Virus record (IMG/VR): IMGVR_UViG_3300017991_000003
Span: 129,019 to 193,018 of that record
DNA from: a virus
DNA: 64,000 nt
Reading direction: 5' to 3' (one strand)
Positions within the stretch are counted from its first letter, which is position 1. Each line of letters starts with the position of its first letter. Of the stretch, positions 13,226 to 55,100 are shown one piece after another. The notes below the pieces were generated by a model. That model had not been told where the DNA came from. It did not search any database and was given only the letters and a program-made list of their open reading frames with translations. Made by a program: the position numbers and the translations under genes.

Positions 13226-13339
13226 TTAGACTTATGCCCTAACCTCTCCCCCTCCTGGCGCTTTTGGTCCATACTGGGGGCACAACTTGACGCCCTTCGG
13301 GGCCGTCTCCCACGGATAACACAACTCCAGGAGAAGAGC

Positions 13340-31941: not shown

Positions 31942-34029
31942 TTGTCAACATTCCTATACGACCTTCTAGGCATGGTTCCTGGCCGACTCGGTGTCTATAA
32001 TCCGTTGAGCCTGCGCACCTTAGACCCGGAGCACGCAAACAAGATGGCGGCCGAAACTCCGAATAGGTTCAGTGTCCCAGTTGAGACGCTGATCCTTCAA
32101 CTGCTCGAGGAGCAGCACCCTCAACTACATGTCGCCCCCGGGTCGGCTACCTATGACACCCTCGTCACCCCGATGGCGTTGGTGCTTCAGCCGTTCCGCG
32201 ACTACCTGCGCGTGATTCAGAGGAACCAGAGCCTCAAGAACGCGCAGACCATGCTGCCCGAGGAGCTGGACCGCCTGGCCAGTAACTTCCTGGTCGACCG
32301 TCGCCAAGGTACCAAGGCACTCGGGGTTCAGCGGGTGCTTTTCCCCACGCTCCAGCAGGTGTCCGTGCCGGCTTCCGCGCGCTTCACGGACGACAACGGC
32401 AACAGGTACCAGCCGGTGACCTCGGTTCAGGTGAGCACCACCACCTTGGCTAATAACGTGGTGGCTGCTACCGGGGAGTACTACGTGGATGTCCCGGTCA
32501 TCGCTGAGCAGCCTGGGGAGGGCAGCGCCGCCCTCGCCGGGGCTGTGACCCAGTTCAGCGGTATTCCCGGAGCGGCACGTACGTTCAACGCGTCTGACTA
32601 CTTCCAGGGCTCGGCTGGCGAGAGCAACAGCCAGCTCGTGGCCCGCATCAAGAGCAGTGTGGCTAACCGAGAGCTGGTCAAGGCCGCCTCGATCGAAGCC
32701 CTCCTGCTTGAGACTTTCCCCAGCATCAGGGACCTGGCTGTCCGGGGCTATGGGGATAGTCTGATGACCCGCGATACGGTGGATGTGGTCCTGGCCAGCC
32801 ACAAGCTGTTCGAGCAGAGCTTTGCCCAGAAGGTGAACCTACCTCTGGACTCTGAGGGCGAGGTTCAGTGGATCACGGACGCTGGAGAGGAGATCACGGC
32901 CCCCATCGGCGGGTTCGTGGGCGCTGTCTACGACCTGACGGGTAAGGACTTCAACGCCCTCAACGTCACCTTGGACGGCCAGATCTACGAGGTCGTGAGT
33001 GCCCAGCCGGGCAACAAGCTCCGCTTCCTGAACTCGGACGACCCCGACGCGGTCAACAACGATTACCGCATCACCCGCGTCGAGGAGGTGCCTGTGGCCC
33101 CCGGCGGGGACGCTGTGAAGGTCTTGCGGCTCGATCGAGCGCTCTCTGATACCGCTGAGGTCGACGTCTCCACCAATCTCGACAGCGTGCCGTATACCGT
33201 GATCGGCCGGTTCAATACCAGCCGCTTCCATGTGGGCGGTAAGGTGGATGTCTACGTGGACTCCACAGCTGATATCGAGCAGACGGTCACGGTCAGCAAC
33301 CTACCCGCGGTCAACGACCAGACCCTGGATGTGGGCGAGATCCCGCTGACTCAGAGCTTCATCAACGACAACGGCGCCAACCTTTTCGAAGGTAACACAG
33401 GCTTTACAGCTCCGGTAATCGCTGTGACCAAGGTCGAGCAGCTGGATCCCACCAACAGCAGCGTAGTGATTCGGGAGCTCACCCCTGACGTCCACTACGT
33501 CCAGGTCACCGCAGCGAGCCGCGGCCGCTTCACGCAGGCCACCAACGACGTACTGGTCATCCGAGGTACCGAGGTTGACCCAGTCACCGGCGAGGAGGTC
33601 CCTCTCTTCGTGGGGCAGCGGCTCAAGGTCACCTACATCACCAACCCGGACATTCCTTTGATTCAGGACTTCGTAGATGCCTCGGATCAGAGGGACTTGA
33701 CCAAGGACATTCAGATCCTCACGCCGACCGTGGTGCTCTTGAATCTGGATCTTGAGTACGCAGGTACCTTGCCTGTGGGTGATGTTCAGACGATCATCAG
33801 GGAGTACATCGAATCCAAGGGCCTCGGCGCCTCGGTCTCGGTGAACGAGATCGTCACGGTCCTCTCTTACTTCGGGGTTACGGACGTCACCATGCCGGTA
33901 CGCCTACGCAGCCGACAGGCCACAGGAAGCGGCTCCTTCACTTTCAACGAGAGCGAGGATCGCCTCTCCGTCGACAGCAACTCGGTGTTCGTGCCTGACT
34001 CGGGCCTGAACATCACCAAGGTCGGGTAA
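31942..34029 (+). CDS. structural protein (695 aa), possibly baseplate or tail component
   Basis: Complete ORF at the head of the long rightward structural operon; beta-rich composition; no specific motif verified. Confidence 0.5.
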   Translation: MSTFLYDLLGMVPGRLGVYNPLSLRTLDPEHANKMAAETPNRFSVPVETLILQLLEEQHPQLHVAPGSATYDTLVTPMALVLQPFRDYLRVIQRNQSLKNAQTMLPEELDRLASNFLVDRRQGTKALGVQRVLFPTLQQVSVPASARFTDDNGNRYQPVTSVQVSTTTLANNVVAATGEYYVDVPVIAEQPGEGSAALAGAVTQFSGIPGAARTFNASDYFQGSAGESNSQLVARIKSSVANRELVKAASIEALLLETFPSIRDLAVRGYGDSLMTRDTVDVVLASHKLFEQSFAQKVNLPLDSEGEVQWITDAGEEITAPIGGFVGAVYDLTGKDFNALNVTLDGQIYEVVSAQPGNKLRFLNSDDPDAVNNDYRITRVEEVPVAPGGDAVKVLRLDRALSDTAEVDVSTNLDSVPYTVIGRFNTSRFHVGGKVDVYVDSTADIEQTVTVSNLPAVNDQTLDVGEIPLTQSFINDNGANLFEGNTGFTAPVIAVTKVEQLDPTNSSVVIRELTPDVHYVQVTAASRGRFTQATNDVLVIRGTEVDPVTGEEVPLFVGQRLKVTYITNPDIPLIQDFVDASDQRDLTKDIQILTPTVVLLNLDLEYAGTLPVGDVQTIIREYIESKGLGASVSVNEIVTVLSYFGVTDVTMPVRLRSRQATGSGSFTFNESEDRLSVDSNSVFVPDSGLNITKVG

Positions 34030-34035
34030 CCCTAC

Positions 34036-37000
34036 ATGACTTCGGACAAGGTCTTTCAGTCGGACTCGCTCTTCGACTACCTCCCCAGCTACTGGAAGAG
34101 CTCGTTCGGCGACCGCCCGGTCCTCGAGACGGTCTACGAGGCCCTCGTGCGGTCCATGGACGTGGACTGGGTGCGCCTATTCGCTGCTAACGACACGCGC
34201 GAGCTCGCCACCACTCCTGTCACCACCACCCACACGCTAGTCCACCAGCCTCTGGGCAGCTGGACGAGCCTAGAGGTGGCTCACGGTCACTACCATACGT
34301 GGCTGGACTGGCCGGCGGCCACTGGGAGCCCCGAGACCTATGTGATTCGACTGGAGGACCACGTCCTCACGCGTCCGCGGCTGTTCTTCGACGGCCGGGC
34401 CATCCCCAGCTTCCTCTATCGCCTGGATACGAGCCACTGGTCTAGTGGCGGCTCGGTGGTCTACGGCACCACCATCACGTTCGACAAGGCTCAGCTCGAT
34501 TCCTTCCTCGACGGTAGCTATCTGAGCCTGCAAGGCCAGTCAGGCGAGAATACGAGCCAGGAGTGGACCCCTGCTGATGTCATCGAGCGGCTCGGGATCC
34601 TCGCCTACAGGGATCAGCGCCCCTTCACGGGGTCTGGAGACGCCTCCACCACCGCGTTTGAGTTCACGATCGGAGGGTCCGCGGCTGTCGTAGAGGCTTT
34701 TGACGCAATGGCTTACGTCGAGAGCATCGACGTCACAAGCCGTGTCACGGTCGCCGCCGTTACAGGCGGTTTCAGCATCACTCCCAAGCCCGCAGGCGGC
34801 TTTGGGGCCGGGATGCTGCTTCAAGCCACGTTTGACGACGACTCCCAGCAGCTCGTTGAGCTCGACAGCGGTACCGGTTCTGTGACACTACGAACCAGTG
34901 CCAGCTCCGTGACTGGGGTTCGGCTCTTCGTGAACATCCCCCTGGGGGAGCAGCACTACACCGTCACCTCGAGCGCTGTTGAGCTGCTCGGTGGCGCTGT
35001 GTTCCCTGGCGGTACGATCCTCAGAGTCAAGGACGCCAAGGGCATCCAGTCCAAGACGCTCACCGAGCCGCGCTCCCGGGTCACCTTTGACCGGGACATC
35101 GACACCAACAGCGCTCAGGTCCTCTACCAGGGCACCGATGTGCTCGCCACCGAGGTCTCGACCAGCGGCATCACCTTCGAGCGCCCCCTCAATAGCGGCG
35201 CCCGATGGCGTGTGGATGCTCCTGTGGTGGTGGATCACGACCACGCCCTCTACCGCACAGCTACGGACGGTACGGCCAACATCGCTATCCCCACGGCCCG
35301 CCCGCTGACACTGGCAGGCAGTGCCACAGATGAGGATTACCCCATCCTCCTGTTCGTGGACGGCGTGCTTCAGGACCCGAGCACCTACAGTCCCAGCTCC
35401 ACGGTCAACCTGGTCCTCCAGTCGCCGCTCCCCTCGGGAATCCCAGTGGATGTGTGGTACGTGGACCAGGAGGAGCCGGCTGAGCACCTGCACAGCGAGC
35501 TCAGTGATGTGGTCCCCCTCTCGGTCCCCGAGCAGTACAGCGTCAGCTACAGTCAGGCTGAGACCTTCGACGACACCACCTGGCCCCTCACGGTCTTCAG
35601 GGACGGCTTCCTGGAGAACGACCCTGACCAGATCCGCACGGTCGACGGCCAGTTCCTTCAGTTCACTGACGCGCTGACCCCGGGCATCAGGGTGGCGGCC
35701 GACGGTCTGCGCACAGAGTTCCGGTACGCCCACACCATCCCCCATAGGGAGGACCTGGACTACGGCTACCGTGGGGACATCCAGGAGATCGGCACGCTCC
35801 AGGACGGGGTGATGAGCCCCAGCTCGGTCAAGAGCCCGGACACCGGCTTCAGCCTCACCCCAGCGGCCAGCCCGGCTGAGACAGCTACCCTCAAGGCGTC
35901 CATCACCTGGGACGAGGCGTGGCTAACCGGTGTGAAGGTGGATGAGCACCTGCTCGAGACCACCTGGGGTGATCCTGTGGGTATCAAGCGACCGGTCAGC
36001 TCGACCCGCTACCGCAACCTGCTCATGGCTGTGTACGCAGCCTACCGCGGCCCCAGCTTCGTCGACAGCCTCGTCAACGTCAGCTCTATCCTCCTAGGCT
36101 CGGCCTTCCTACCCACCGCTGGCGTGAGTGGGGGCATCACGCGCTCCTCCACCGGCGTCCAAGTCCTCATCGAGCCCACGGACCCCAAGGAGAGCCCGTA
36201 CACCGTTGACCTGCTCCCTGGTGAGGAGCATCGCATCCTGCCGGCTCCCCGTGAGATGTCTCGGCTCCGCGCGGTCAACAGCCTCGCCACTGTTAGTGAC
36301 CGTAGTCTGGACGACATCCCCTGGCTCGCCTTCATGGCCCAGGACGTGGCTGAGGACTACTCGTACGCCAAGCGGCTGGATGTCAGGAGCTCGAGCAGCT
36401 TCAGCAGCATCCCGGCCGGCTACGACAAGACCACCGGCCACCTCACCGACTACAGCGTCAACTACAACGACCAAGAGGTGTGGGTCGGTGATCTCATCAA
36501 GCTGACACTGGTTGCCAGTGCCAGTCCCACGTCTATCATTCAAACCTACACGAGTGATGGCACGTCTCCTCAACAGGTGCAGCGGCTCGTCTACGACTCG
36601 AGCCAACCGACAGCCCGCCTCAGGGCGCATGTCGCCTCACCGGCGGTAAGTACTTACAAACCCGGCCATTACGTCAATCTAGAGGGTGCTGGGAGCCCCT
36701 GGGACACCCTCACCGGCGAGTACTACCAGCTCACCAACGTCAGCCCCGGCTACGCAGCTAGCACTACCAGGCTCACGGCTGAGTGGATCAGCAGTCACGC
36801 TGCTCCCACCATCACGGCTGTCGACTACACGGCGTCTCCTTATCCCGAGCTCCAAGGCTACAACCTCAGCCAGAGCACGAGCACGCCTGACTTCCAGTCC
36901 TACACGCAGTTCACCACGGTGCAGGAGGTCCTCGGGGATCACACCATCCGGGTGAGCTTCGACGCTACCAGTGAGGTCACCGGCTACGGCGATGAGACTT

Positions 37001-40000
37001 ACGGTGAGCTAGGCTTCGGCGGTGGGGTGCTGGACCCTGTGCCCTCGGCCTACACCATCTGGAGCCGGCGCACCCGCCAGCTAGACACCTACCTATCCCT
37101 GGACCAGGCGCTCGATGAGAGCGTGGCCCTGGTCCCTGGTGAGACGGTCCAGATCCTCAACGAGGAGCTCAGCGCTCTCCTGTCCACCCACGTCTTCGCC
37201 ATGGAGCTAGCGTGGGATCGGATGACGGACCGGGAGACCCTGGAGGACCTCAAGGTCGTCATCGACCGCATCCGGCCTGCTGAGACGCGCGCCCTGGTCT
37301 ACACCGAGGGCTTCCCGACCCTCAGCCTGGAGATGACTGGCTCGCTCATCGGAGGCAGCCCCGACATCACCGAGACCCTGGCCGACTCGCTCTTCCTGGA
37401 GGAGAGCTGGATGGGCACGGGGTCGACCGCACTGCTCACCCCGGAGCTCAACTACCTCTACCGCCCCTGGCAGCACCGCTTCGGTCCTCGCCTCGAGTCC
37501 CAGCTCAAAGAGCCGCCGGCAAGTCCTGTGGTGGGTGGCTTCTACGCCGTGGCTCCCGTAGGCCAGGCCAGCCATCTTGGCGTGTGGGCCAGTGTGTACG
37601 GATCCAAAGGCCTGGAGGGCCAGGTCCTCCGCCGCGGGTCCCCGGATGAGTGGTTGGTTGACAGCGGCTTCAGTCCCGCTCCGGGGTGGGCGCTCGATTT
37701 CAGCTCGGGTGTGCGCCGGCTCAACTCCGGCCCCTTCACCCACAACGAGGGCAGCCCGCTCACCATGCGGGCCCTGGTCTACGTCCCCAGTGGTAGCTAC
37801 AGCGAGGCAGGCACGGTCTATGTGGGCCAAGCGAGCCCCATGCTGCCCTTCGGCTTCGAGGTCCAGAGCCCTGGCCTGACCCTGGCGCCCTTCTTCCAAG
37901 TCCACAGCAGTGAGACCAAGGCACTGGGTAGCCCCACCAACTACTACGACCGCTGGCTGGATCTGGTGGGCGTGTACCGAGAGGGTGCGGCCAGCTACTG
38001 GTACACCGACCTGTACCTGGATGGGACGCTGATCGCCACGAGCAGCCCCACGGGCGCCGCGTCTCTGACACTGGCTCCCAGTGCCACATTCAGCCTCACG
38101 CTGGGTGGCACGACCCAGTCGACCCCCACCCAGAGCCCCAGCTTCAAGGGCTACCTGGACGAGTACCGCCTGTACCTGGGTACCGAGCTCTCGAGCCCCG
38201 AGATCACGACCCTGTACAACGCCGGCTCCCCTGTGATGCCCTCGATCGGGGTCACGGACGCTGGTAGCCCCATCGCACCGGCCGGGATCACCGCCTGGTA
38301 CGTGGGCCAGGAGCATGATCCGGCTACGGTCATCGATCTGAGCGGTAATGGGTACAACGCTAGCCGCCAGACGGCCACGCTGGGCGACGAGAACCAGGAC
38401 TGGCGGGTGGCCGGGTACCTTCAGACCCGCTACCGCCTCTTCGGCGACACCTACGAGATCAAGCTGGGCGGCTACTACGTCGACCAGGGCAAGCTCACGA
38501 CCACGCTGCTCGGTACGCCCCCGAGTCTGCTTAGCGACTCGCCTGACTCGCAGACCGCCGCTATCGATGCTGGCGGCCAGCCTCTCCTGATCCCCGGGGT
38601 CTTCGGCTTCAAGGACGTGGTCTACACGAACCAGACCCGCTGGCTGCACTACAAGGACCTCGAAGGCTGGATCATCACCCTGGCTAACCCCCAGGCGCCA
38701 GGCTCGGCTATCTCGGTGGACCAGGAGGGCAACCTAGGCTCCCAGAGCCCCACCACGGCCCTTGCCTCGCCCCTGAGCATCACCGGTAGCCGCCTGACCC
38801 TCACCTGCGCCGCGGGTAGTGGTGGTGCTGTGACCCAGCTGGAGCTCGATGGTAGCCCGCTGCTGGTCAACACCCTCAAGGGCCAGCTGACCCAGTGGTC
38901 CTGCCGCTACCTGGGCAGGGGCTTCGAGCGTACTGTGAGCGAGGCCGGCAAGATCAGCCGCCCCGTGGCTCAGCCGTCCAACTCCGACTTCATCTCCAAG
39001 GAGTCCGGGGACACGGCGATCCGCACGGCGAGCTACCTCGGCAACATCCAGGGCACGATGACCTACGACGGGACGCTCTACGACTCGAGCGCCACCCGCC
39101 TGGACAAGCTCATGGAGGTCGGCTTCAACGCCAACCCCAACGTGATCCGCGTCGACGCCATCTTCGATCGGGATCAGAGCACCAAGGACGGCTCCTGGTA
39201 CAGCCAGTTCACCATGAGCCTGGTCCCGGAGCTCAACGTGGCCTGGCTCTACCAGCCTGGGGTCGACTCCGTGCCGCTCCCCGCCGTGTTCAACGGCGAC
39301 GTGAACTACCAGACCAACTGGGTGGGTGGTGCGATCTACACCAACGCGGCCCAGGACAAGGCTGTGGGCGTGTTCCACCGCCGGCCGAACACGGATACGG
39401 GCTGGTTCCAGTCCCAGGTGCTCCCGGCCCCTGCGTCGGCTGTTTCCAAGAGCAGCCCGGGCAGCACGTCGTATTCGGTGCTCAACGATCAGGAGTTCCT
39501 GGGTGATTACCCCGGCGCGGCTGACAGCATCTGGCGCACGGAGCGCTACATCGTGTCCGGTACGCTCACAGAGGTCGTCGGGGGGTTCAACCAGCTCGCC
39601 TATGAGCTGGAAGGCATTGAGCCCATCGTTACGGGGCCCGAATCGGCCACCTACATCGAGTTCACAAGCCTCCCGGACCCTCTGACGCTCGGCGACACCT
39701 TCTCGGTGACCGCTCAGGCCTTTGGTCCGGGCGGGTTGATCGACCCGAACTTCGATCGGCAGGCCTATCTGACCCTCCTGACGCCTGGTGGCACGCTCAC
39801 GGGCACCACTACGGGTACGTTCGCCTCCGGTGAGGTCACGTTCAGTGGTCTCGAGGTCTCCCCGGGCGGTACCTGGTTCCTCCAGGTCGACTCGGGCGGC
39901 CTAGCGCCAGGCCAGGCAGCCATCCAGGTCAACAACCCCGCTCCGTACGCCTCGAACCCCACGGCTTGGGCCATCAGCCCGGCCCAGGTGCCTCTCACGC

Positions 40001-43000
40001 TGTACGGTACGGACTTCCTGGACACCTCGTTCGTGGTCTACTCGAACTGGGGCGGTACTCCGAGCCCCTATCCGTCGACGCTGACCTACGTGAGCCCGGG
40101 TGAGGTGCAGTTCACGCCTCCCCAGGAGATCCTGGACAGCTACCCGAACACGCTGACGCTCTCGGTCCACAACCCCGGGCCTGGTGGCGGCTCTACGGGT
40201 GAGCTCCCGCTTACGATCGGCAGCCCCGGCGTACCGAGCCCGGTTGTCCCGAGCCCCGTGGCCGACTTGCTGCTGTTCACGGCCCCGCCTAGCCTGCCCA
40301 TCACCCCGCGCGTGGGTGAGAACACGCTGATTGGCGGTTATGCGGCGGACTCCACGCTGTCTCTGGCGCTGGATGTGGACGCTACGGGCGCCGTGACGGT
40401 CAGCCCGAGCGCCCAGCCGGCGGGTTCGAGCATCGGCGGCACCCTGACCCAGTCCCTGGGCGCCTCGATCCCCGGTTACGTGTTCTTCCCGAACCTAACC
40501 TTTGATACCGCAGGCACTTACACGCTCAACCTGGTCCACGAGAGCCCCGCGGTCATCGCCCAGACGCCGTTGGCGCTCAACCTGAGCGTCCTGAACCCGG
40601 TCCCGACGCTCACTAGCATCGACCCGGACAACATCGACCAGGGTGCGCAGACCCTGACGCTACGGGCGCTGGGCTCGAACTTCGTGAGCGGTGACTCCAG
40701 CATCTACTGGAACGGTCTCCAGCGGACCACGACCTATGTGAGCCCAGGTGAGCTACGTACTACGCTGACCGCGGCGGACTTCCTGGTGCCCCAGGTGGTG
40801 GGTGTGAAGGTCAACACGGCCCAAGGCGGTGGTGACTCGAGCACGATCCCCTTCACCATCAACGGCGCGCCTGGCTCTGGCCTCACTGAGGAGGACCTGA
40901 GCCCCACGATCATCGTCCTGAGCCCCTCGGCGTACCAGCGGGTGCTGCCCACGCAGGGTCCTGTGATCACTACCGAGGAAGGTGTGTCCCTGCACCGGGC
41001 CTTGGAGCAGACTGGCCTCGCTACGGCAGGCACTCCTATCCACGCCTACGACGGATCGGTGGGCGCTATCGAGGTCGTCGAGGTCCGAGCCGGTGCCTAC
41101 AAGGCGATGGCCACCGGTGACGACGTCTTCAAGAGCGACAAGAACCGCAACGTGGCGGTCCCGCACGCGCCTGATTCCGACCACCCGCTCATCATCCGAG
41201 CGGCCAAGTGGTCCGCGGCTCGTGCCCCTGAGCCGGACATGGTGGGTGATCCTGAGCCGTACGTGCTCGTGGCCCGTTTCCCTGACTTCGGTAGCGAGGA
41301 CGTGATCTTCCACGACCGGTCGCTCGAGAGCAGTCATTGGCACTGGTACGACCCGATCCTGTTCCTGGGTAGCCGGGGCGGGATGCTGATCGCCGACAAC
41401 AAGATCTACGGCGCCAACGACCCCACCATCCCGTGGCTGGGCTGGCACATGTACCGGCCGAAGGTCCTGGGCCGCTACGACCACCGGGTGTACCGCCTGG
41501 ATTCGGATCGCTGGATCGTGGGCCCGGGCCCTGACACAGCCTCGATCACCCAGTACGACACCACGGGCGTCGAGATCAGCCCCAAGTCCTGGGACCTCGA
41601 TGACCTGCACCGGGCTCGCTTCGGCAAGCGCCTGACCAGCTCCAACGGCATCACGTCGGGCTTCGCTTCGCTGACCTCGGTGCCTGCGGGCCAGATCACG
41701 GCCACCCACGTGGGCGTGTTCGGCAACGATGCGGACACGCTCTACCGCGTGGGCGTGGCTAGCACGGCCGGCGGCCTGATCCAGACCGATCTGGGTCTCC
41801 TGAGCGTCTTCTCGTCTGATGCGGCCCTGACGACTAGCGACTTCATCGCCTCGGCGCCCTTCGATCCCATCACGAGCCCCAACCAGTACGCCAGCCCTCC
41901 GTCCCTGAGCTACAGCATGGACGTGACCTGGCAGTCCAGCAGTACGTTTGATGCTGTGCCCGGGGCCGGGGGTACGATCCAGTTCTACGACCGCAAGGAT
42001 GACGAGACCCTGTCGCCCAGCACGCTGCTCACCGCGGGCGGTACGGTCAACGTGCCCCTCGAGCAGGGCATCGGCGCCGCTTTCATGGCCTTCACGGGCC
42101 GTGGCTGCTACGTCCTCAAGACCACGGTCAAGGACGAGTGGGGCAACCCGGTCCCCGACCCGGAGGACCCGGATAAAGATCTGACTCGGAACAGCATTAT
42201 CCAGGTCACGAACCACGGGATGAGCGACAGCCCGACGAGCCTGGAGGTGGTCTATGACCTGCCTGATCAGGAGATGCTGTGGTTCTCCAACATCACCTGG
42301 GCCGCAGGGCAGAACATCGGCTTCATGGGCCCGTTCAGCCTGCTGCTGGAGGCGCGCACGAGCTCGGGCGCCCTCTCGATGGAGGTGGACGGTACGGTCC
42401 AGGTTCTGATCGACAGCTTCGAGACCGTGGAGGGCACCGCCATCGGCACGCCCTTCCTCTCCTCGAACGAGATCACGCACATCATGCGCGGCGGGGTCTG
42501 CCACATCCGGGACCTGCACCCCTACATCACGAGCATCAACCCCGAGTCCTTCCAGGCGTTCCTGGATCAGAACTCGGCCTCCAACTACGCGATCCTCACC
42601 CTCACCCTCACGCCGTTCGGCACGGGCACGGGGCTAGACAGCCAATCTACTACTTACCAGATCGGCGTGTGGCCTCCGGGGGCCCAGCGCGGTGAGAGCC
42701 CGGGCTCGATCCCTGTGCCCTTCTCGGTCTATCCGTGGGGCGCGCGTCTGACGGACAAGGAGTGGCTAGGCCCGAACCTCAACGAGTTCGCGCTCACTCT
42801 GGCGCCCTCGGACACGATCCAGGGCATGGAGAGTGGTGCACCGGTCAACGCCAAGGTCAAGACGGCTATCGGCCTGCCCTTCTGGGCCGGCTGGCCGGGC
42901 TCGCCTGGGCACCCCAACTACCGCCCGGGTTACGAGAACATCTGGCCCAAGCCCGAGCACACGCCTGGGCTCGAGTACATCGGCTACCCGACCTTCGACG

Positions 43001-44256
43001 TCCAGCCCAAGTGGGGTCTCGCGCCCTTCTACACGAGCGACTGGATTTTCGACGGCGGTGTGATCATGAACGTGGGCGTCGAGCATGGCGTCTACCTCCA
43101 CAACACGGTCGGCGACACGCGCTTCAGCAACACGATCATCACTCGCGTGGGTCGGACGGCCATCCAGAAGGCCGATCGACGCATCGAGAACCCCTACGAC
43201 CCGGTCCTTGTCGGCACGGGCGGGGACACGGGCGGCCCAGGTCAGGGTCAGGTCATCTACCGCAACGTGCAGGCATCCGAGACGGCGCTGAACGACGGTG
43301 GCGGGTCCTACACCATCGTGGGCCACGGCCCCGACGGGCAGATCACGATGGAGAACTGCTCCATCCGGCAGGGCTTCGACGACCAGCTTGCCGCTCACCG
43401 CTACATCAGCGGCAACGGCATGTTCGGCACCATGTTGACGGTCTGGGGCGGCTGGTTCCCGGGCTACTCGGACCATAGCTTCTGCCTGACGGGCATGGGC
43501 TATCAGTTCGACGGCCTGCGCCGGTGGCATCCGTTCTTGCGTAAGGCCGACGGTAGTTCGGTGTTCACCAACGACGAGTACCTCACCCACCTGACCAACA
43601 AGTACGACGTGCTGGGTCTTTCGGGCGTGCTTGGGGACTACGGTGGTGTCCCGGTTCCGACACCTCCCCACTACACCAACCTGCTCTACGGCGCCCCGAT
43701 GTTCTCCTACGGGGGCGTGCAGGACCTGGGCCTGACTCTGGGCCAGGAAGCGGCCGGTATTCGCGAGCCCGTCTTCACGGGTACGGACGCGACCTACGGG
43801 ATGGGTAGCCCCACCTACGCGAGCTTCCATCAGACGGGCACGCTCACGATCACGGGGTGCCTCTTCGAAGCTAACCACCCGAACGCCACGAGCGACGCCG
43901 AGGTTACCTGGTCGCAGCCCCTGCCCAGCCTCAACCCCTACGGCTCGATCTACAAAGGCGGTACCTACAGCTCGGCGCCGGCGCTGCTCGTCAGTGACGT
44001 GCGCATCCTGACCCTCCAGGACAACATCATTCACCAGACGGGCAACCAGGCGATCCAGTTCGACGAAGTGGCCTACGTCTGGGACAGCCCCCAAGCCAAG
44101 GCCACGGGCAAGGCGACGAAGCTCATCACCAAGAACGCCGCTATCTGGCAGATCCTGGGCGGCAACAACGAGCTGATCTCCGCCGCGGTGGTCAAACGCT
44201 ATGGCCAAGACGCTCCGGCGGAACTTGTGAGTCAGCTAACGAGCCCGAGCACCTAA
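34036..44256 (+). CDS. giant fibre/adhesin-like protein (3406 aa) with Ig-like (IPT/TIG-like) and LamG-like segments
   Basis: Single 10.2-kb open frame with GC3-rich codons. Two IPT/TIG-like segments (PTLTSIDPDNIDQGAQTLTLRALGSNF...TYVSPGEL...; APYASNP...TLTYVSPGEV...) and a LamG_3-like signature (SFKGYLDEYRLYLGTELSSPEITTLYNAG). Antisense ORFs inside are artefacts. Confidence 0.65.
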   Translation: MTSDKVFQSDSLFDYLPSYWKSSFGDRPVLETVYEALVRSMDVDWVRLFAANDTRELATTPVTTTHTLVHQPLGSWTSLEVAHGHYHTWLDWPAATGSPETYVIRLEDHVLTRPRLFFDGRAIPSFLYRLDTSHWSSGGSVVYGTTITFDKAQLDSFLDGSYLSLQGQSGENTSQEWTPADVIERLGILAYRDQRPFTGSGDASTTAFEFTIGGSAAVVEAFDAMAYVESIDVTSRVTVAAVTGGFSITPKPAGGFGAGMLLQATFDDDSQQLVELDSGTGSVTLRTSASSVTGVRLFVNIPLGEQHYTVTSSAVELLGGAVFPGGTILRVKDAKGIQSKTLTEPRSRVTFDRDIDTNSAQVLYQGTDVLATEVSTSGITFERPLNSGARWRVDAPVVVDHDHALYRTATDGTANIAIPTARPLTLAGSATDEDYPILLFVDGVLQDPSTYSPSSTVNLVLQSPLPSGIPVDVWYVDQEEPAEHLHSELSDVVPLSVPEQYSVSYSQAETFDDTTWPLTVFRDGFLENDPDQIRTVDGQFLQFTDALTPGIRVAADGLRTEFRYAHTIPHREDLDYGYRGDIQEIGTLQDGVMSPSSVKSPDTGFSLTPAASPAETATLKASITWDEAWLTGVKVDEHLLETTWGDPVGIKRPVSSTRYRNLLMAVYAAYRGPSFVDSLVNVSSILLGSAFLPTAGVSGGITRSSTGVQVLIEPTDPKESPYTVDLLPGEEHRILPAPREMSRLRAVNSLATVSDRSLDDIPWLAFMAQDVAEDYSYAKRLDVRSSSSFSSIPAGYDKTTGHLTDYSVNYNDQEVWVGDLIKLTLVASASPTSIIQTYTSDGTSPQQVQRLVYDSSQPTARLRAHVASPAVSTYKPGHYVNLEGAGSPWDTLTGEYYQLTNVSPGYAASTTRLTAEWISSHAAPTITAVDYTASPYPELQGYNLSQSTSTPDFQSYTQFTTVQEVLGDHTIRVSFDATSEVTGYGDETYGELGFGGGVLDPVPSAYTIWSRRTRQLDTYLSLDQALDESVALVPGETVQILNEELSALLSTHVFAMELAWDRMTDRETLEDLKVVIDRIRPAETRALVYTEGFPTLSLEMTGSLIGGSPDITETLADSLFLEESWMGTGSTALLTPELNYLYRPWQHRFGPRLESQLKEPPASPVVGGFYAVAPVGQASHLGVWASVYGSKGLEGQVLRRGSPDEWLVDSGFSPAPGWALDFSSGVRRLNSGPFTHNEGSPLTMRALVYVPSGSYSEAGTVYVGQASPMLPFGFEVQSPGLTLAPFFQVHSSETKALGSPTNYYDRWLDLVGVYREGAASYWYTDLYLDGTLIATSSPTGAASLTLAPSATFSLTLGGTTQSTPTQSPSFKGYLDEYRLYLGTELSSPEITTLYNAGSPVMPSIGVTDAGSPIAPAGITAWYVGQEHDPATVIDLSGNGYNASRQTATLGDENQDWRVAGYLQTRYRLFGDTYEIKLGGYYVDQGKLTTTLLGTPPSLLSDSPDSQTAAIDAGGQPLLIPGVFGFKDVVYTNQTRWLHYKDLEGWIITLANPQAPGSAISVDQEGNLGSQSPTTALASPLSITGSRLTLTCAAGSGGAVTQLELDGSPLLVNTLKGQLTQWSCRYLGRGFERTVSEAGKISRPVAQPSNSDFISKESGDTAIRTASYLGNIQGTMTYDGTLYDSSATRLDKLMEVGFNANPNVIRVDAIFDRDQSTKDGSWYSQFTMSLVPELNVAWLYQPGVDSVPLPAVFNGDVNYQTNWVGGAIYTNAAQDKAVGVFHRRPNTDTGWFQSQVLPAPASAVSKSSPGSTSYSVLNDQEFLGDYPGAADSIWRTERYIVSGTLTEVVGGFNQLAYELEGIEPIVTGPESATYIEFTSLPDPLTLGDTFSVTAQAFGPGGLIDPNFDRQAYLTLLTPGGTLTGTTTGTFASGEVTFSGLEVSPGGTWFLQVDSGGLAPGQAAIQVNNPAPYASNPTAWAISPAQVPLTLYGTDFLDTSFVVYSNWGGTPSPYPSTLTYVSPGEVQFTPPQEILDSYPNTLTLSVHNPGPGGGSTGELPLTIGSPGVPSPVVPSPVADLLLFTAPPSLPITPRVGENTLIGGYAADSTLSLALDVDATGAVTVSPSAQPAGSSIGGTLTQSLGASIPGYVFFPNLTFDTAGTYTLNLVHESPAVIAQTPLALNLSVLNPVPTLTSIDPDNIDQGAQTLTLRALGSNFVSGDSSIYWNGLQRTTTYVSPGELRTTLTAADFLVPQVVGVKVNTAQGGGDSSTIPFTINGAPGSGLTEEDLSPTIIVLSPSAYQRVLPTQGPVITTEEGVSLHRALEQTGLATAGTPIHAYDGSVGAIEVVEVRAGAYKAMATGDDVFKSDKNRNVAVPHAPDSDHPLIIRAAKWSAARAPEPDMVGDPEPYVLVARFPDFGSEDVIFHDRSLESSHWHWYDPILFLGSRGGMLIADNKIYGANDPTIPWLGWHMYRPKVLGRYDHRVYRLDSDRWIVGPGPDTASITQYDTTGVEISPKSWDLDDLHRARFGKRLTSSNGITSGFASLTSVPAGQITATHVGVFGNDADTLYRVGVASTAGGLIQTDLGLLSVFSSDAALTTSDFIASAPFDPITSPNQYASPPSLSYSMDVTWQSSSTFDAVPGAGGTIQFYDRKDDETLSPSTLLTAGGTVNVPLEQGIGAAFMAFTGRGCYVLKTTVKDEWGNPVPDPEDPDKDLTRNSIIQVTNHGMSDSPTSLEVVYDLPDQEMLWFSNITWAAGQNIGFMGPFSLLLEARTSSGALSMEVDGTVQVLIDSFETVEGTAIGTPFLSSNEITHIMRGGVCHIRDLHPYITSINPESFQAFLDQNSASNYAILTLTLTPFGTGTGLDSQSTTYQIGVWPPGAQRGESPGSIPVPFSVYPWGARLTDKEWLGPNLNEFALTLAPSDTIQGMESGAPVNAKVKTAIGLPFWAGWPGSPGHPNYRPGYENIWPKPEHTPGLEYIGYPTFDVQPKWGLAPFYTSDWIFDGGVIMNVGVEHGVYLHNTVGDTRFSNTIITRVGRTAIQKADRRIENPYDPVLVGTGGDTGGPGQGQVIYRNVQASETALNDGGGSYTIVGHGPDGQITMENCSIRQGFDDQLAAHRYISGNGMFGTMLTVWGGWFPGYSDHSFCLTGMGYQFDGLRRWHPFLRKADGSSVFTNDEYLTHLTNKYDVLGLSGVLGDYGGVPVPTPPHYTNLLYGAPMFSYGGVQDLGLTLGQEAAGIREPVFTGTDATYGMGSPTYASFHQTGTLTITGCLFEANHPNATSDAEVTWSQPLPSLNPYGSIYKGGTYSSAPALLVSDVRILTLQDNIIHQTGNQAIQFDEVAYVWDSPQAKATGKATKLITKNAAIWQILGGNNELISAAVVKRYGQDAPAELVSQLTSPST
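38065..38086 (+). repeat. inverted-repeat element copy A (CTGACACTGG-ctc-CCAGTGCCA) inside the giant CDS
   Basis: In frame within the LamG-like region, encoding SLTLAPSAT; 25 of 28 nt identical to copy B including flanks. Confidence 0.5.
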
Positions 44257-44304: not shown

Positions 44305-44326
44305 CTGACACTGGTAGCCAGTGCCA
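44305..44326 (+). repeat. inverted-repeat element copy B (CTGACACTGG-tag-CCAGTGCCA) downstream of the giant ORF
   Basis: Begins 48 nt after the stop at 44254-44256 and about 20 nt before the next start at 44346; 10-bp stem with 3-nt loop. Confidence 0.5.
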
Positions 44327-44345: not shown

Positions 44346-45785
44346 GTGAAGAAGCTCCGATTCGCCGATGGCCTGAAGCCGCTCACGTCGGACATGGACT
44401 CCATCCATGACCTGACGGAGGATGCGCTGGGTACCGTGATCCAGGCCCTTACCAGCGGCTCCAGCGGTAAGGTGCTGTTCGACAACGTACCGCCGTCCGG
44501 TACGTATGACTCGGGAACCGGTACGATCACGGTCACCGTCCAGGCGCAGTACTATGCGGTGGGTGGTGTGGTGCTTCAGCAGCCCGAGACCGAGATCAGC
44601 GTGGCGGCCGGCACGACAGACATGCAGATCGGCGTCTTCCTCGTGGCGGGGACGGAAGGCACTCAGGCTCTGCGGAACTTCCTCTCGATCGACCCCGATA
44701 CCGCTCAGGTCATCCAGCAAGACCTCAACCATGAGATCTTCGTCTCGGACGCCTCCCGAGTGGTCCTGACAACGGTCTCCGATCTTGTGTCCAGCGTGCC
44801 GGAGCCTACTCTGGCGGCTGACGACAGCGGCTGGGTCCGTGTGGGCACCCTCCGCTTTACCGTGGCTACGGGTGCCATTACGGTGTCGAAGAACACGACC
44901 GACGTGTACACCCTGCCGGGTGGTACGACGGTCCCGGTCGCAGACCATGGTGAGACCCACCTTCCGGATGGCGCTGATCCCCTCCCTGTGAGCGCCTTGA
45001 GTGGCGGAGCTTCGGGTGGTAGCACCGCTGGTCTACTCCCGGAGGGTGGTCTCACCGCTTTGCTAGACGCTGTGCAGTCCGTGCTCCCTGCGGACTCGGC
45101 GCCCTACATCCAGGTCCTGACGACCGGCGACAACTCGGTCGACGGCTCGGACATCGACTCCAAGACGGTCACCCTCGACCTCAAGCTGCACGAGTCGATC
45201 ACCACCAAGGACTCTGGTGGCACAACCAAGCTCGCCGTCAACCACGCCCCGGCCTCTGCGCTGAAAGGCACGAGTGACAGGAGCGCGCGTGAGGACCACA
45301 TCCACCCCCTCGTGGAGTCGGGGTTCATCTTCCAGCAGATCACCCTGGACCTCACCACGGACAAGCTCGGCACGGTTATTCCCTACACGGTGACTGCCGC
45401 GGCTTCCGGTCAGCCCACCGCGACCGTGGCCAAGATCCTCTCGGTCACGGCCATGTGGCAACCACCCAACATCAAGGCGGGTTACGAGAACCGCAGCGTG
45501 GATAGTGGCTGGAACGTCGTGAGCTACGCTGGCTCCCTGGGGACGCTGGGATGCCGCGCCCTTGTGACTGGCAAGAACACCTTCGAGCTCGAGGTCGGCA
45601 CTCTCGGTGCTGCGCACGCCTCAGATGCGGCCATTCAGGCCATCAACGACTCGGACGGCGACGGCTCTGACGCCTGGACCAACCCCATCTACCCCACAAG
45701 CGGCGAGTTCGCCAAGACCGGCAAGATCTTCCTCTTCGTGCTTGCCTTGCGGGCCGGCTCGGTGGTCCTTGAAGACGGTCAGTGA
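44346..45785 (+). CDS. tail-fibre-like structural protein (479 aa)
   Basis: GTG start; Thr/Ser/Gly/Val-rich; follows the giant ORF. Confidence 0.5.
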   Translation: MKKLRFADGLKPLTSDMDSIHDLTEDALGTVIQALTSGSSGKVLFDNVPPSGTYDSGTGTITVTVQAQYYAVGGVVLQQPETEISVAAGTTDMQIGVFLVAGTEGTQALRNFLSIDPDTAQVIQQDLNHEIFVSDASRVVLTTVSDLVSSVPEPTLAADDSGWVRVGTLRFTVATGAITVSKNTTDVYTLPGGTTVPVADHGETHLPDGADPLPVSALSGGASGGSTAGLLPEGGLTALLDAVQSVLPADSAPYIQVLTTGDNSVDGSDIDSKTVTLDLKLHESITTKDSGGTTKLAVNHAPASALKGTSDRSAREDHIHPLVESGFIFQQITLDLTTDKLGTVIPYTVTAAASGQPTATVAKILSVTAMWQPPNIKAGYENRSVDSGWNVVSYAGSLGTLGCRALVTGKNTFELEVGTLGAAHASDAAIQAINDSDGDGSDAWTNPIYPTSGEFAKTGKIFLFVLALRAGSVVLEDGQ

Positions 45786-51063: not shown

Positions 51064-52142
51064 GCCAGCGCTTCGCCACCACCCACCAGGCGGTCAACCT
51101 CCTGCGTAACGGGAGCCTCGAGATGGTCGAGGCCCTGGACAGCGGTGCGCAGAAGCCCCATTTCTGGTCATTCGACGCCCTGATCCACGAGGCGCTTCAA
51201 GATGCGGTCGTGGTAAACACCTTCGAGGTCCTTCAGGAGGATCCTGGACCGGCCCCGGCTAGCCGGTTTCGTGTGGAGCTTGTCACGGGCGAGCCCTCCA
51301 AGCTCTATCAGGACACGACCCGGGACGCCTCGGTCCACGTCCAGGATTTCCCGGTCCCGCTAGCGCCGTCGTTGAAGCCGGCGCTGCCGCAGGGCCACTT
51401 TTCTACCGAGGTCCACGCCCTCCCCAAGGGGGATTACACGCTCTCCTTCGATGTTCGGGCCTACCAAGGCACCGTGTCGATCGATCCAGCTGCTTGGGAC
51501 CTCGTCGGAGCGGTGCAGACGCCGACCTACCCCACTGGCCAGACTTCCGTGACACTGGGAGCTAGTGCCATCTGGCGCCGGATCACCATCCAGTTCTCGG
51601 TCGACTACGCCCTGGGCGGTGTCGGGCTCCAACTAGAGCGCACAACGTCCTCCGGTCTGGCTGTGGTAGAGATCGGCAACGTCATGTTGGCTCAGGGGCA
51701 CTACCGCTACCTTCCGTACACCGGCGACCCGCTCCTCTCGGCCATCCCCAAGGGGGCGATCATCCTCACCATGGGGTCTGTGTGCCCTCCTGGCTTCGAG
51801 GAGATCGGCGAGGATGGTCTTGAGCCTCTGCCTGAGTGGGTGGCTGATGAGCCCAACATCCTGGCACGCAAGGGTAACTACCCGCGCGAGGGCACGGAGC
51901 TAGTGGGAACGACCTCGCATACTGTGGATGCTGTCGAGATCACTCCGGGCACCACGGATGCGCTCGAGTTCTCCGGTCCCGACAGCAAGGTGGTTGATGG
52001 GACTCTCGTCGACACCTCCAAATCCAATCCGGCGACGGACGAGCCCGGCGGGTCTCAGGGCGTCCCGGAGCATGATCACACGATTGAGACGGCAGGTACG
52101 CGGCCGGTGAGCCGCGGCTACCTCCTTTGCCGGCGCATCTGA
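51060..52142 (+). CDS. tail-fibre/receptor-binding-like protein (360 aa), member of a three-gene paralog set
   Basis: N-terminal NLLRNGSLEMVEA; C-terminal AIILTMGSVCPPGFEEIG followed by PEHDHTIE and an ending GYLLCRRI, shared in pattern with 52142..56359 and 56363..57481. Confidence 0.55.
   Translation: MSQRFATTHQAVNLLRNGSLEMVEALDSGAQKPHFWSFDALIHEALQDAVVVNTFEVLQEDPGPAPASRFRVELVTGEPSKLYQDTTRDASVHVQDFPVPLAPSLKPALPQGHFSTEVHALPKGDYTLSFDVRAYQGTVSIDPAAWDLVGAVQTPTYPTGQTSVTLGASAIWRRITIQFSVDYALGGVGLQLERTTSSGLAVVEIGNVMLAQGHYRYLPYTGDPLLSAIPKGAIILTMGSVCPPGFEEIGEDGLEPLPEWVADEPNILARKGNYPREGTELVGTTSHTVDAVEITPGTTDALEFSGPDSKVVDGTLVDTSKSNPATDEPGGSQGVPEHDHTIETAGTRPVSRGYLLCRRI
51549..51570 (+). repeat. inverted-repeat element copy D (degenerate, GTGACACTGG-gag-CTAGTGCCA) inside a CDS
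   Basis: In frame within gene 51060..52142, encoding SVTLGASAI; same phase as copy A. Confidence 0.4.
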
Positions 52143-55100
52143 TGGAAGTGAACACCCTCAACCAGCGCAACGCGCTGAACCTCCTGCGTAACGGCTCCTT
52201 CTCGCAAGGAGTCGCGCACTGGTGGGGGAGCTATCTACGCCACAAGCGCAGCTCCGGAGGCCAGACGCTGGGCTCCAATGCTCCTGAGTATGCTCTGGAG
52301 GTCTTCCAGGCCCAGGACACGAGCTATCCAGACTCGGTGACGCCCGGGGCGCATCAGTGGGTGGATCGCCCGGATCTATTCACCTATCCCAGCCAGCGGC
52401 TGGTGAGCGGCCTGCGCCTCATTCCTTTTACGGATGATCGAGCGCTGCTCCAGGTCGTGCCGGAGCTGACGGCGATGGATGGGGTCGTCCTCGCTGAGCC
52501 GGACGCTGCGGAGATCCCGACCTACTCCGATATCTTCCAGCACCCGTTCGTGCACCTGGAGCCGGATGGGACGCGTGTGAACATCGAGGCGGGTTCGGTC
52601 CTGCCTCTCACGGATACCCGGCGCCCGGAGTCGAGCGGCCTGTACCGTGTGGGCTCCTTCCTGGAGAACCGGAATGGAACCGGTGTGGCGTCGGACTATG
52701 ACCCGTCCAACTACCACGAGTACACCTACCACGGCCTGGAGATCAATCCGCTGAGCGGAGGCTCGTACAAGGCTCTGATGACCCACGAGACGAGCGGCGT
52801 GGTCACGGCCGCCATCACCGCGGAGGCGTCGGGCCTGTACACCGTGGTGACGATCTCGGTCGACAAGGACGTGGTGCGCGGCTTGGATCGCGAGCAGCCT
52901 GGGTACACCCCGGAGCTTGGCTTGGCGGTCGGTGATGTGTTCACCATGACCGAGCCGGTGCTGCGCTCGGGCGTGATCACTCAGGTGGCGATCTCGGACG
53001 ACCAGACGGTCGTGACGCTCATCCCACTCGCTAACTATGGCGACTACGTGGTCACCCCGTTCGTGGAGGACGTGACCCCGGAGGCCTGGTCGATCTACGC
53101 CACGTCGGTCGCTACGGTGCGGCGCACCATGCCGCTGTACGCCTACGACTTCACCCTGGGCTACACCTGCCGGATCAACGACGGCTACTCAGCCCCGGCC
53201 GAGACCTCGATGGTGGCCCGGACTCTTTCGGGCACGGGGACTCTTGTGGGCACAGGCACGGTCGGCGCTGAGATCCCGCGCATCGGCGGCAAGCGCAAGA
53301 TCGTCAACCTCCTAATCGACGAGGACACGGTCGACGGGGCGTGGCAACGCCGGCTCGAACGTCACTTCCGGGAGGCCTCGGCTCCGCTGGAGGGGCGTAT
53401 CGACCTCTCGGTCCTGCCCCCGGCCGGCTCCGAAGACAGCTACCCCACTCCAACCAGCAAGCTGCCTGACTCGGTCTACTGGTACTTCTTCACGGACCTG
53501 GATGGGGAACTTCCGAACCTCAACGATCCGCCGGAGTCGATCGAGGACACGCCGCACTTCCAGATCAACATCCCGGTCGACGAGAACAACCTGCCTCCGG
53601 CTGAGTGGCTGGCCGGCAACAAGGAGTTCACGGTCACGCCCTTCGGCGACACGTCCGAGCTCGAGGAGCAGTTCTCCTGGATCATTCCGCTGCTGCTCGT
53701 TCCTAGCTTCACGGCGCAGGCAGCGCTGCTAGAGGTCCCCGACGAGACCTATCCGGCTCTGCTGAAGCTCTACGTCGCCTGGGATACCGACGAGTTCGGC
53801 GCCTTCCCTAGCGTGGATGGCTTCAACATCGGCTGGAACAGCACAGTGACGGCTACCTGGGGCTTCAACGTCAAGGGTCTGAACGGCTCTGGTGCGCGCG
53901 CTCTGGTCTCGGACGTCTTCATGACCCACGGGGATCAGGCGCAGCGGCTCGAGAAGCTCGATGACACGGCCCTGCCTGTCACAGGCCCGCTCACCGATGA
54001 TGTCTCGATCGATCCCCTGCGCCACGGGGTCGATCTCTTGGAGAACGTGATCCCGCCCGGGGCGGTGGTCCTCTACGCCGGCGGCGGTACCTGCCCTCCG
54101 GGCTTCAAGCGAGTGGAGAGCTTCCCCGACGCCGCTGTAGCGGGAATCGGCTCGGACGCTGATCTGACCCTCACTGACGCAACCGTCGTCTACGACACGG
54201 CCCGTGATCGGACCAAGATCACCTGGACGGGTCGGGAGTTCCCGCTCTATGACGATGACGGGGGTGTGATCCCGATCCCTGAGCTCGCTCTCTCGGTCAG
54301 CAAGCCGATTCCAGGCATCCCGGACTCTCTCCAGGAGGTCAAGTTCACGCCGAGCCAGCAGGTGGTACAGCCGGGCATGGCGGTTCGTGTCCCTGAGTTC
54401 CTCATGGACTCGACGATCACCGAGACCGACCCGCTGTTCTCTTCGGAGACCCTCGGCAAGGCCATGCGCGCTGTAGGTGGCTGGGCGCAGCTGCATCGCC
54501 CCGAGGAGCCACTATTCAGCCGACTCGGTGTCGAGCTGTGGTTCCAGACCCAGAGCAGCATCACGACTTCTGGCGATGAGCGCCTGTCGTGGATCTTCCG
54601 CCAGGCCAAGAAGGTCGGCGATGATGTGATCAGCTGGGGCCTTCTGTACGTCACGTCTGGCACGGACGGGGGCAAGCTCGAGTGGCGTGTCGAGACGGTC
54701 GGCTCCCTGGGTGCCCGCACAGACGTCTATCGCATGACCACGGCGGCCCTTCCGGTTAGCGGATTCGCCGGTGACTGGATGCACATCATCGTGGAGTTCA
54801 GCGCGCCCAACTCCGGTACGGTCGGCGAGCCGGGCCAGGGCGTGACCCCTGATGTGCGCATCACCTTCAGCGATACGGAGGACTCCTACGGCACGCTGAT
54901 CGAGAGCCACAACTTCGGCGTGGTACAGGCAGGGGCTGATCTGGCCAAGGGCGCCGTGCTGCGGCTAGGCCACACCCCCGAGGTAGATGGCGCGCTGGGG
55001 ACGAGCTCCTATACCGACCCGGTGACCGGGAACCTGATCACCCTGGCCGCCAAGCACATCGACAACTTCCGCGTCTTCGATCTCTCTAGTCAGGAGATGA

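Follow-up and report, generated by a model that had tools for sequence, protein, structure and literature searches.

What is the product of an uninterrupted 10.2-kb open reading frame (ORF) doing in a phage genome? The question is raised by a 64,000-nucleotide stretch of DNA from IMG/VR virus record IMGVR_UViG_3300017991_000003 (positions 129,019 to 193,018; here called the window), in which one ORF, the giant ORF, encodes a protein of 3406 residues. A preliminary description of the window, made from the sequence alone, proposed a multidomain carbohydrate-binding fibre or decoration protein. The fibre-like character, with Ig/TIG-type and LamG domains, is supported by our results. We favour, with moderate confidence, the reading that the protein is a baseplate-anchored single-chain tail arm that binds a host surface polysaccharide and probably degrades it. 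Its largest functional module is an interrupted β-helix of depolymerase type of ∼1100 residues at the C-terminus, which went unrecognised in the preliminary description; a pectate-lyase-like β-helix had been named there among the folds to look for, and it is present. The coordinates of this and the other features are collected in Table 1.

Table 1. Features of the window. Positions are those of the 64,000-nucleotide stretch; residues are those of the giant protein.
Feature	Position	Strand	Remarks
Two tRNA-Leu genes (anticodons TAG, CAA)	3986-4072, 4147-4232	-	ARAGORN and Rfam
TGACACTG-N5-CAGTGCCA copies	6527, 14060, 17254, 30803	-	
Sugar/modification gene run	∼7771-11628	+	Two Glyco_transf_25, two methyltransferases, faint sulfotransferase (precomputed Pfam, matching contig)
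54-nt direct repeat	13183-13236, 14850-14903		93% identical
DUF5661 protein, 355 aa	15711-16778	+	E 4e-12; directly before conserved 1262-aa protein
J-like baseplate wedge subunit gene	31942..34029	+	695 aa from TTG; phrog_6 match
Giant ORF	34036..44256 (including stop codon)	+	ATG start, 3406 aa
N-terminal conserved block, residues 1-830	34036..36525	+	36-58% identity across five orthologues
TGACACTG-N5-CAGTGCCA copies	34883, 35306, 36503, 38066, 44306, 51550, 62286	+	
Tandem ∼85-aa module pair, residues ∼375-566	35158..35733	+	hhalign sub-profiles 375-471 versus 455-553, 92%
Dispensable segment, residues ∼831-950	36526..36885	+	Absent from 4168- and 4231-aa orthologues (family alignment)
LamG/concanavalin-A-like lectin domain, residues 1239-1390	37750..38205	+	Pfam Laminin_G_3
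Conserved block without assigned fold, residues ∼1400-1870	38233..39645	+	Collinear in all orthologues
Two ∼200-aa [Ig-like + TIG/IPT] units, residues 1883-2073 and 2093-2285	39682..40890	+	hhalign, Pfam TIG
β-Helix N-terminal cap and first rungs (right-handed), residues ∼2290-2530	40903..41625	+	
Inserted Ig-like β-sandwich domains, residues ∼2625-2880	41908..42675	+	Model residues ∼345-600, all-β, pLDDT 55-85
β-Helix core, candidate substrate groove/active site, residues ∼2950-3130	42883..43425	+	Conserved polar motif, high pLDDT
β-Helix C-terminal rungs and end, residues ∼3265-3406	43828..44253	+	Model residues 985-1126, pLDDT mostly 65-92
Motif copy between giant stop and next gene's start	44306..44326	+	
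Next conserved gene	44346..45785	+	479 aa; ∼470-479-aa orthologue after giant in all lineages with context
PAS-domain protein, 238 aa	49612-50328	+	PF00989, E 8e-11; within putative tail-fibre cluster
Large ORF	52142..56359	+	1405 aa by gene caller; 1410 aa from upstream TTG
Large ORF	57743..62281	+	1512 aa; N-terminal He_PIG Ig domain

Coding evidence and relatives

The window has a G+C content of 64% and a stop frequency of 0.027 per codon; at this base composition 3406 stop-free codons would be expected by chance with a probability of ∼1e-40. The G+C fractions of the giant ORF at the three codon positions are 0.61, 0.50 and 0.85 (the last being the third-position value, GC3), a clear coding signature that is typical for genuine genes of GC-rich genomes. 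High-GC DNA gives many spurious long ORFs, and antisense or overlapping ORFs of up to 588 residues, the usual by-product of high G+C, do overlap the giant gene. The giant ORF might on these grounds be taken for a chance open frame, a mis-assembly or a gene fusion hidden by a frameshift. Against this, the exact protein is on record in three metagenomic contigs, and the ENA assemblies ERZ27256796 (39.9 kb) and ERZ27256773 (174.7 kb) each have 100% nucleotide identity with the window over ∼22 kb; part of the downstream cluster, the 1512-aa ORF with its neighbours, was found again in JGI metagenome 3300018080.

The same single frame is open in relatives. Scanning IMG/VR with the protein encoded immediately upstream (the J-like protein, described below) retrieved IMGVR_UViG_3300008255_000132, which has, with the gene order unchanged, an uninterrupted orthologue of 3435 residues (54.7% full-length identity); Ga0210043_1000064 is the same phage (99.98% nucleotide identity). 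An exhaustive HMMER search with residues 2301-3406 against 1.84 billion representatives yielded further giants of 3440, 3636, 4168 and 4231 residues. These four are collinear with the query from end to end, with ∼36-40% identity over the first ∼830 residues and 25-32% beyond. The frame is thus found in six distinct lineages (3406-4231 residues), the five orthologues each being unbroken, collinear and 31-55% identical to the window protein. Differences in length are concentrated at a few insertion points, one of which lies in the Ig and TIG region. All members of the family are metagenomic, and those with a source name are labelled 'hypothetical protein'.

Comparison of the window gene with its 55%-identical orthologue gave proportions of non-synonymous and synonymous differences (pN and pS) of 0.31 and 0.72, the latter being saturated, and a ratio of the corresponding substitution rates (dN/dS) of at most ∼0.17. 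Constraint extends along the whole length and no segment escapes it, which indicates purifying selection. Because identical sequence is found in independent assemblies, the orthologues are uninterrupted (down to 31% identity) and amino-acid change is selected against (dN well below dS), we regard the artefact and gene-fusion explanations as excluded, with a probability close to nil, and the giant ORF as a real gene with near certainty. The claim of a single uninterrupted frame in the preliminary description therefore holds.

Outside this family the protein is isolated. Among the INPHARED phages no relative was found by megablast of 14 kb, by tblastn of giant residues 1-1000 or by tblastn of the J-like protein. 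GTDB species-representative genome contigs contain no relative of the giant protein and so give no prophage or host clue. There was no match to PHROGs for the full-length protein or ten segments of it, to NCBIfam for key segments or neighbouring proteins, or to the PDB, by sequence, for the whole protein or a profile of five giants. Word-indexed searches with residues 1-900, residues 2301-3406 and a five-sequence N-terminal alignment returned 8000 candidates each, none significant; they are uninformative and say nothing about absence, as the exhaustive HMMER search did recover homologues.

The C-terminal β-helix

Full-length scans of the giant protein against Pfam, PHROG and the PDB are almost blank, and the domain map comes from scans of 400-residue segments together with comparison of family profiles. 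We consider the resulting domain assignments to be very probably correct.

Residues 2281-3406 were modelled with AlphaFold2 (AF2) from a 37-sequence alignment of the giants and small homologues. The model has a predicted template-modelling score (pTM) of 0.64, with 247 residues at a predicted local distance difference test score (pLDDT) of at least 90. Its confident segments (model residues 1-250, 670-850 and 985-1126) are stacked β-rungs, split by an all-β insert and by low-confidence loops, and the region matches the right-handed parallel β-helix of the pectin-lyase fold. Foldseek gave only weak matches, of the inserted sandwiches to tandem Ig-like proteins, and missed the interrupted helix. 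According to this model, which is of moderate confidence, the C-terminal ∼1100 residues are a β-helix with sandwich inserts; together with the sequence matches given below, we regard this fold assignment as solid.

The exhaustive search also returned 33 small proteins (∼150-1050 residues) that match only residues ∼2985-3130. Giants and small proteins have in common a motif of their own, KWG..EHxxYxHN..GRTxxQ..R, which in the window protein reads K2992-W2993 ... E3016-H3017-x-x-Y3020-x-H3022-N3023 ... G3039-R3040-T-x-x-Q3044 ... R3048; K2992, W2993, E3016, H3017, Y3020, H3022, N3023, G3039, R3040, Q3044 and R3048 are near-invariant over 22 aligned sequences. One turn of a β-helix takes ∼23-24 residues, and E3016-H3017 and R3040, being this far apart, should share one face. 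The geometry of the motif would fit a substrate groove or an active site, and the motif is a good candidate for the latter. Some of the small homologues match Pfam Beta_helix or Chondroitinase_B, the only Pfam matches for the core region, and one lies on a phage-like 46-kb contig of tiny unannotated ORFs. By its sequence, the C-terminal module forms with its stand-alone small homologues an uncharacterized β-helix family with a clear candidate active site.

Polysaccharide lyases, hydrolases and epimerases have the right-handed β-helix fold, as do phage tailspike depolymerases. When the PDB is searched with a profile of the core, the Vibrio cholerae VPS lyase RbmB is found (9ozd; E 8.5e-5, RbmB chain residues 103-205), with E-Q and G-D-A at the E-H and G-R-T positions of the family. 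The match of a mixed profile to the PL6 alginate lyases (E 2.9e-8) is confined to the N-terminal cap and is due to the small homologues. The hallmarks of PL6 (chondroitinase B, AlyGC) are a catalytic Lys/Arg pair and a Ca2+-binding Asn/Glu/Glu set.

From the sequence evidence we would put catalysis by the β-helix at an even balance. The alternative is a protein of the same place and architecture with a non-catalytic β-helix, which would act purely as an adhesin or structural fibre and bind glycans or proteins of the host by its LamG, Ig and β-helix surfaces. The known catalytic residues are unmatched, a cap profile built from the giants alone has no lyase match and arrays of Ig and LamG domains are typical of adhesins, all of which would suit it. 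Conservation speaks the other way: E3016, H3017, Y3020, H3022, N3023, R3040, Q3044 and R3048 are near-invariant down to small proteins of ∼30% identity, and this polar cluster is spaced by about one helix turn, as in an active site or a specific sugar groove. The closest relatives in sequence and fold are, moreover, mostly lyases, epimerases and depolymerases. We consider the purely non-catalytic protein to be possible but rather unlikely. The module may be a lyase, a hydrolase or a mere binder.

A variable region of the diversity-generating retroelement type was considered and rejected, there being no long near-identical direct repeat pair that involves the C-terminus; no reverse transcriptase was found among the window and neighbouring proteins scanned, which do not cover every ORF.

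N-terminal and middle modules

The N-terminal block (residues 1-830) is the best-conserved part of the giant protein; over 100 of its residues are invariant in the five sequences compared. It includes a tandem module pair, in which a sub-threshold DUF4183 match was seen at residues 431-471. The dispensable segment that follows is succeeded by a conserved and partly helical region (residues 951-1190).

The LamG signature of the preliminary description, the string SFKGYLDEYRLYLGTELSSPEITTLYNAG, lies at residues 1369-1397, and the domain match is genuine: on a 400-residue segment Laminin_G_3 (PF13385) reaches 38.0 bits and so exceeds its gathering cut-off in Pfam of 27.6 bits (E 2.2e-9; positions 16-150 of the 151-position profile), although the full-length scan misses it. 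The conserved block behind it (residues ∼1400-1870) has 18-38% identity in the three distant orthologues and 40-56% in P0001, and has no Pfam, PHROG or PDB match.

At least two TIG-like segments, each ending in a TYVSPGE motif, had also been proposed. There are indeed two homologous modules, and their TIG-like halves (residues 1960-2066 and 2180-2280) align with an hhalign probability of 98.4% (E 6e-15), but the motif, at residues 2017 and 2233, lies in the middle of each module and not at its end. Each TIG-like half is preceded by an Ig-like half, and the two complete units align with a probability of 97.3%. The Pfam TIG match (PF01833; cut-off 20.9 bits) is marginal in the window protein, with 21.5 bits on the segment (residues 2190-2274) and 19.4 bits in the full-length scan, and reaches 52.4 bits, in two stretches, in orthologue P0002. 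The two largest orthologues (P0002 and P0003) have ∼380-395 additional residues at this region, about the length of two more units; the number of [Ig-like + TIG] copies thus appears from the alignment to vary between lineages.

The composition of the giant protein, high in Thr, Gly and Ser and low in Lys and Cys, resembles that of extracellular β-rich, adhesin-type proteins. No transmembrane segment, signal peptide, or secretion or anchoring motif was found in its sequence. BLASTP shows no strong internal repeats, and the internal duplications are visible only by profile comparison.

Gene neighbourhood and probable link to the baseplate

The protein encoded immediately upstream of the giant gene matches phrog_6, 'baseplate wedge subunit' (the gp6/J family), with an E-value of 1.4e-17 and 64.6 bits. 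The J-like ORF of the window is likely to be over-extended: its orthologues have 661-666 residues and align from about its residue 34-35 (MAAETPNRF...), and its true start is probably ∼34 codons further in, which would give ∼661 residues. Its stop codon lies 6 nt before the giant ATG.

This pairing is conserved. In every lineage read, a J-like orthologue stands before the giant gene, and the giant starts 4-120 nt after the J-like gene in all five lineages with readable context (all but P0001); the gap is 4-6 nt in four of them and ∼120 nt in L007. The order J-like gene, giant and genes for proteins of ∼470-479, ∼182-186, ∼780 and ∼197-218 residues is common to the window, IMGVR_UViG_3300008255_000132, Ga0535670_0000061 (148.9 kb) and Ga0099849_1000001 (183 kb), the last with a few extra small genes, and the short P0002 contig likewise keeps the J-like and giant pair. 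On the 5′ side of the J-like gene is a divergently transcribed block of small genes, including one for a helix-turn-helix protein; on the 3′ side of the giant the plus-strand cluster continues with further large proteins. One cluster protein of 360 residues has a weak tail-fibre PHROG match. The neighbouring proteins scanned show no recognizable family apart from phrog_6, and neither the J-like protein nor its profile has a match in the PDB by sequence.

The conserved adjacency to the wedge gene in five lineages leads us to predict that the giant protein is attached to the virion tail, and a location in the tail or baseplate is likely. Alternatives would be a fibre of the neck, whisker or head, a head decoration, or a depolymerase that is soluble or released and has its gene beside the wedge gene by chance. 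Domains of Ig type are frequent on the heads and necks of phages, the N-terminus shows no sequence or structural link to known baseplate proteins and the gene of the small homologue P0008 seems to stand alone, outside any recognizable tail module. The tight J-like pairing in every lineage with readable context is not what such a protein would lead one to expect; conservation is highest in the N-terminal part, which is what contacts within the virion would impose, and the genes that follow form a conserved plus-strand module, one of them with the tail-fibre match just mentioned. We judge a place away from the baseplate to be improbable. Since the giant gene directly follows the wedge gene in each of these lineages, a role on the head, or in 'decoration' as the preliminary description put it, is unlikely.

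The length of the protein was called exceptional for a phage, which is an overstatement. The N4-like phages carry virion RNA polymerases of ∼3400-3500 residues, that of DEV having 3398 (PMC11445570); the size is unusual but not unique. Near-equal length is the only point in favour of the giant being a virion RNA polymerase of N4 type or some other internal protein that is ejected. There is no polymerase match in Pfam, PHROGs or the PDB, the domains (LamG, TIG and β-helix) are of extracellular type, the gene follows a baseplate wedge gene and the contigs are of 149-183 kb rather than ∼72 kb. The domain content, the gene context and the genome size contradict the polymerase identity, which we reject as having a vanishingly small probability.

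Proposed working

In the arrangement that we favour, the N-terminal ∼830-1100 residues would dock on the baseplate periphery beside the gp6/J-like wedge, as gene adjacency and the highest conservation suggest. The LamG domain, the ∼470-residue block and the variable [Ig-like + TIG] units would form an extended spacer, perhaps with weak affinity for glycans, that keeps the distal module away from the baseplate. The C-terminal β-helix would recognize capsule, exopolysaccharide or O-antigen and would probably cleave it, allowing the baseplate to reach the cell surface; the cleavage is suggested by the conserved polar motif on adjacent rungs. By analogy with gp7, a monomeric arm seems no less likely than a trimeric spike of the classical kind, because the composition is of adhesin type and Pfam scans of the full-length protein and its segments found no triple-β-helix, coiled-coil or intramolecular-chaperone families.

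Several observations weigh against this arrangement. About 35% of the C-terminal AF2 model is below a pLDDT of 50. The PL6 and chondroitinase-B signal stems from the small homologues that dominate the mixed profile, and a cap profile of the giants alone (residues 2285-2535) finds no PDB relative. The proposed catalytic residues of RbmB, K227, R231 and E253 (PMC12993940), fall outside the stretch that aligns with the core, with the proviso that the chain numbering may be offset from that of the publication. At the other end, the N-terminal block matches no Pfam, PHROG or PDB entry, the AF2 model of residues 1-1190 (five-sequence alignment) has a pLDDT of 40 and is unusable, and the family profile of the N-terminal region shows no similarity to T4 gp7 (hhalign probability 0.1%). 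Synteny is the one line of evidence for anchoring at the baseplate.

A bolder version can be formulated, which we put forward only tentatively and think improbable as a whole. One monomeric chain of 3.4-4.2 thousand residues per wedge would join a gp7-type component, a fibre-like spacer and a receptor-degrading enzyme, and the enzyme module would found a new polysaccharide-lyase or hydrolase family, recognizable by the KWG..EHxxYxHN..GRTxxQ..R motif, that is spread among uncultured phages. T4 and other myoviruses divide these three roles among five or more proteins; the single-chain arrangement, if true, would be a new way of building the periphery of a contractile-tail baseplate.

If the favoured reading is true, a baseplate can have its entire host-recognition periphery built as a single giant polypeptide that is inherited vertically, as opposed to the usual exchangeable fibres and spikes. 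The phages of this lineage are large and uncultured, with contigs of 149-183 kb and no cultured relative. The giant gene is a strong candidate for the host-range determinant of its phage group, and the C-terminal family could yield new polysaccharide-degrading enzymes.

Other large genes and further features of the window

Two further giant ORFs, of 1405 and 1512 residues, had been described as following in the same operon, the first with the same LamG-like signature. Both exist on the same strand, 8-13 kb on the 3′ side of the giant ORF, but they do not follow it directly, as nine called genes separate it from the 1405-aa ORF. The shared signature was not found in the 1405-aa protein by Pfam on 400-residue segments, by a hidden Markov model of the LamG region of the giant family (E ≤ 10), by a relaxed motif expression or by BLASTP. 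A third large gene, encoding 1724 residues, lies on the same strand beyond the end of the window (locus L011, 17189-22363). Apart from the He_PIG domain of the 1512-aa protein, none of the three has a family match; the 1405- and 1512-aa proteins have none in the PDB by sequence, and by BLASTP none of the cluster's other large ORFs is a paralogue of the giant. Several large proteins for interaction with the host seem to be encoded by this phage.

A PAS-domain protein is encoded in the middle of the putative tail-fibre cluster; a sensory domain within a structural module is unusual, and tblastn finds no counterpart in the 55%-identity relative. The DUF5661 gene stands before the gene for a 1262-aa protein, with orthologues of ∼1200-1229 residues in relatives, and the two may be another tail module. 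The products of the sugar/modification genes could act on phage DNA, virion proteins or host glycans, and the two tRNA-Leu genes might be helpful for host assignment. The upstream copy of the 54-nt repeat takes up the stretch 7-60 nt ahead of the start codon (ATG, 13226) of one minus-strand ORF, and the downstream copy comes directly after the start codon (ATG, 14850) of a second minus-strand ORF; the repeat has the look of a leader or promoter region common to both.

An oriented 21-nt near-palindrome, TGACACTG-N5-CAGTGCCA, has 11 copies in the window with at most one mismatch (0.00 expected) and none in the related phages. Seven copies point the same way as the genes around them, that at 14060 lies between convergent genes and that at 17254 is antisense to the ORF containing it. 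The copies at 6527, 14060, 30803, 44306 and 62286 come after stops or before starts; only that at 14060 has a strong terminator-like hairpin with a U-tract. The giant ORF has four copies (34883, 35306, 36503 and 38066) in its first 4.1 kb, and the 360-aa ORF has one. These five are all in one codon phase and encode (L/V)-T-L-x-x-S-A, and the copy at giant residues 823-829 falls where the conserved N-terminal block ends. The motif may be an operator, a promoter or a processing site that is specific to this lineage.

Comparison with known systems

In gene position the giant resembles T4 gp7 and the simpler P2 gpI and Mu gp48, the genes of which also lie immediately on the 3′ side of the gp6/J-like wedge gene. 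T4 gp7 is a 119-kDa three-domain monomer that is present in six copies per baseplate and binds gp6 in the wedge (PMC3004832). The giant is likewise large and multi-domain, and its N-terminal block together with residues 951-1190 is about the size of gp7. It differs in having neither profile similarity to gp7, as given above, nor a Tail_P2_I or DUF2313 Pfam match (E ≤ 5), and in carrying ∼2300 extra residues with lectin, Ig and β-helix modules where T4 uses the separate proteins gp10, gp11 and gp12 and fibres.

In its likely function the giant resembles receptor-binding proteins that bear a depolymerase. The tailspike and tail-fibre depolymerases (CBA120 TSP2, Klebsiella KP32gp38, Acinetobacter tailspikes and Geobacillus virus E2 ORF18) are trimers of chains of 500-1300 residues, compared with 3406 for the giant. 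The helix of the giant is broken by ∼250 residues of β-sandwich inserts and two long low-confidence loops, its sequence has no detectable similarity to any cultured-phage protein and its C-terminal module is vertically conserved across lineages and not visibly freely swapped. In contrast to the trimeric tailspikes, its beads-on-a-string Ig/LamG content suggests a monomeric arm.

Relative to the β-helix lyases and epimerases (PL6 alginate lyases and chondroitinase B, Paenibacillus alginate lyase 6kfn, AlgE-type epimerase/lyase 8ja4 and RbmB), catalytic residues are not demonstrably conserved, and the family has its own motif and no NCBIfam match; the sequence comparisons do not establish membership of the PL6 or RbmB families. 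With bacterial adhesins built from Ig/TIG, LamG and β-helix domains the giant shares its modularity, a varying number of Ig-type repeats and a Thr/Ser/Gly-rich, Cys-poor composition. Unlike them, it is the product of a phage gene beside a baseplate gene, lacks a secretion signal, has few repeats and consists mostly of unique sequence.

Large modular receptor-binding proteins with β-helix depolymerase domains are well known, and the giant does not constitute a new biological category. What is unusual is the absence of cultured-phage relatives, the single chain of 3.4-4.2 thousand residues, the interrupted helix and the vertical conservation of the whole architecture.

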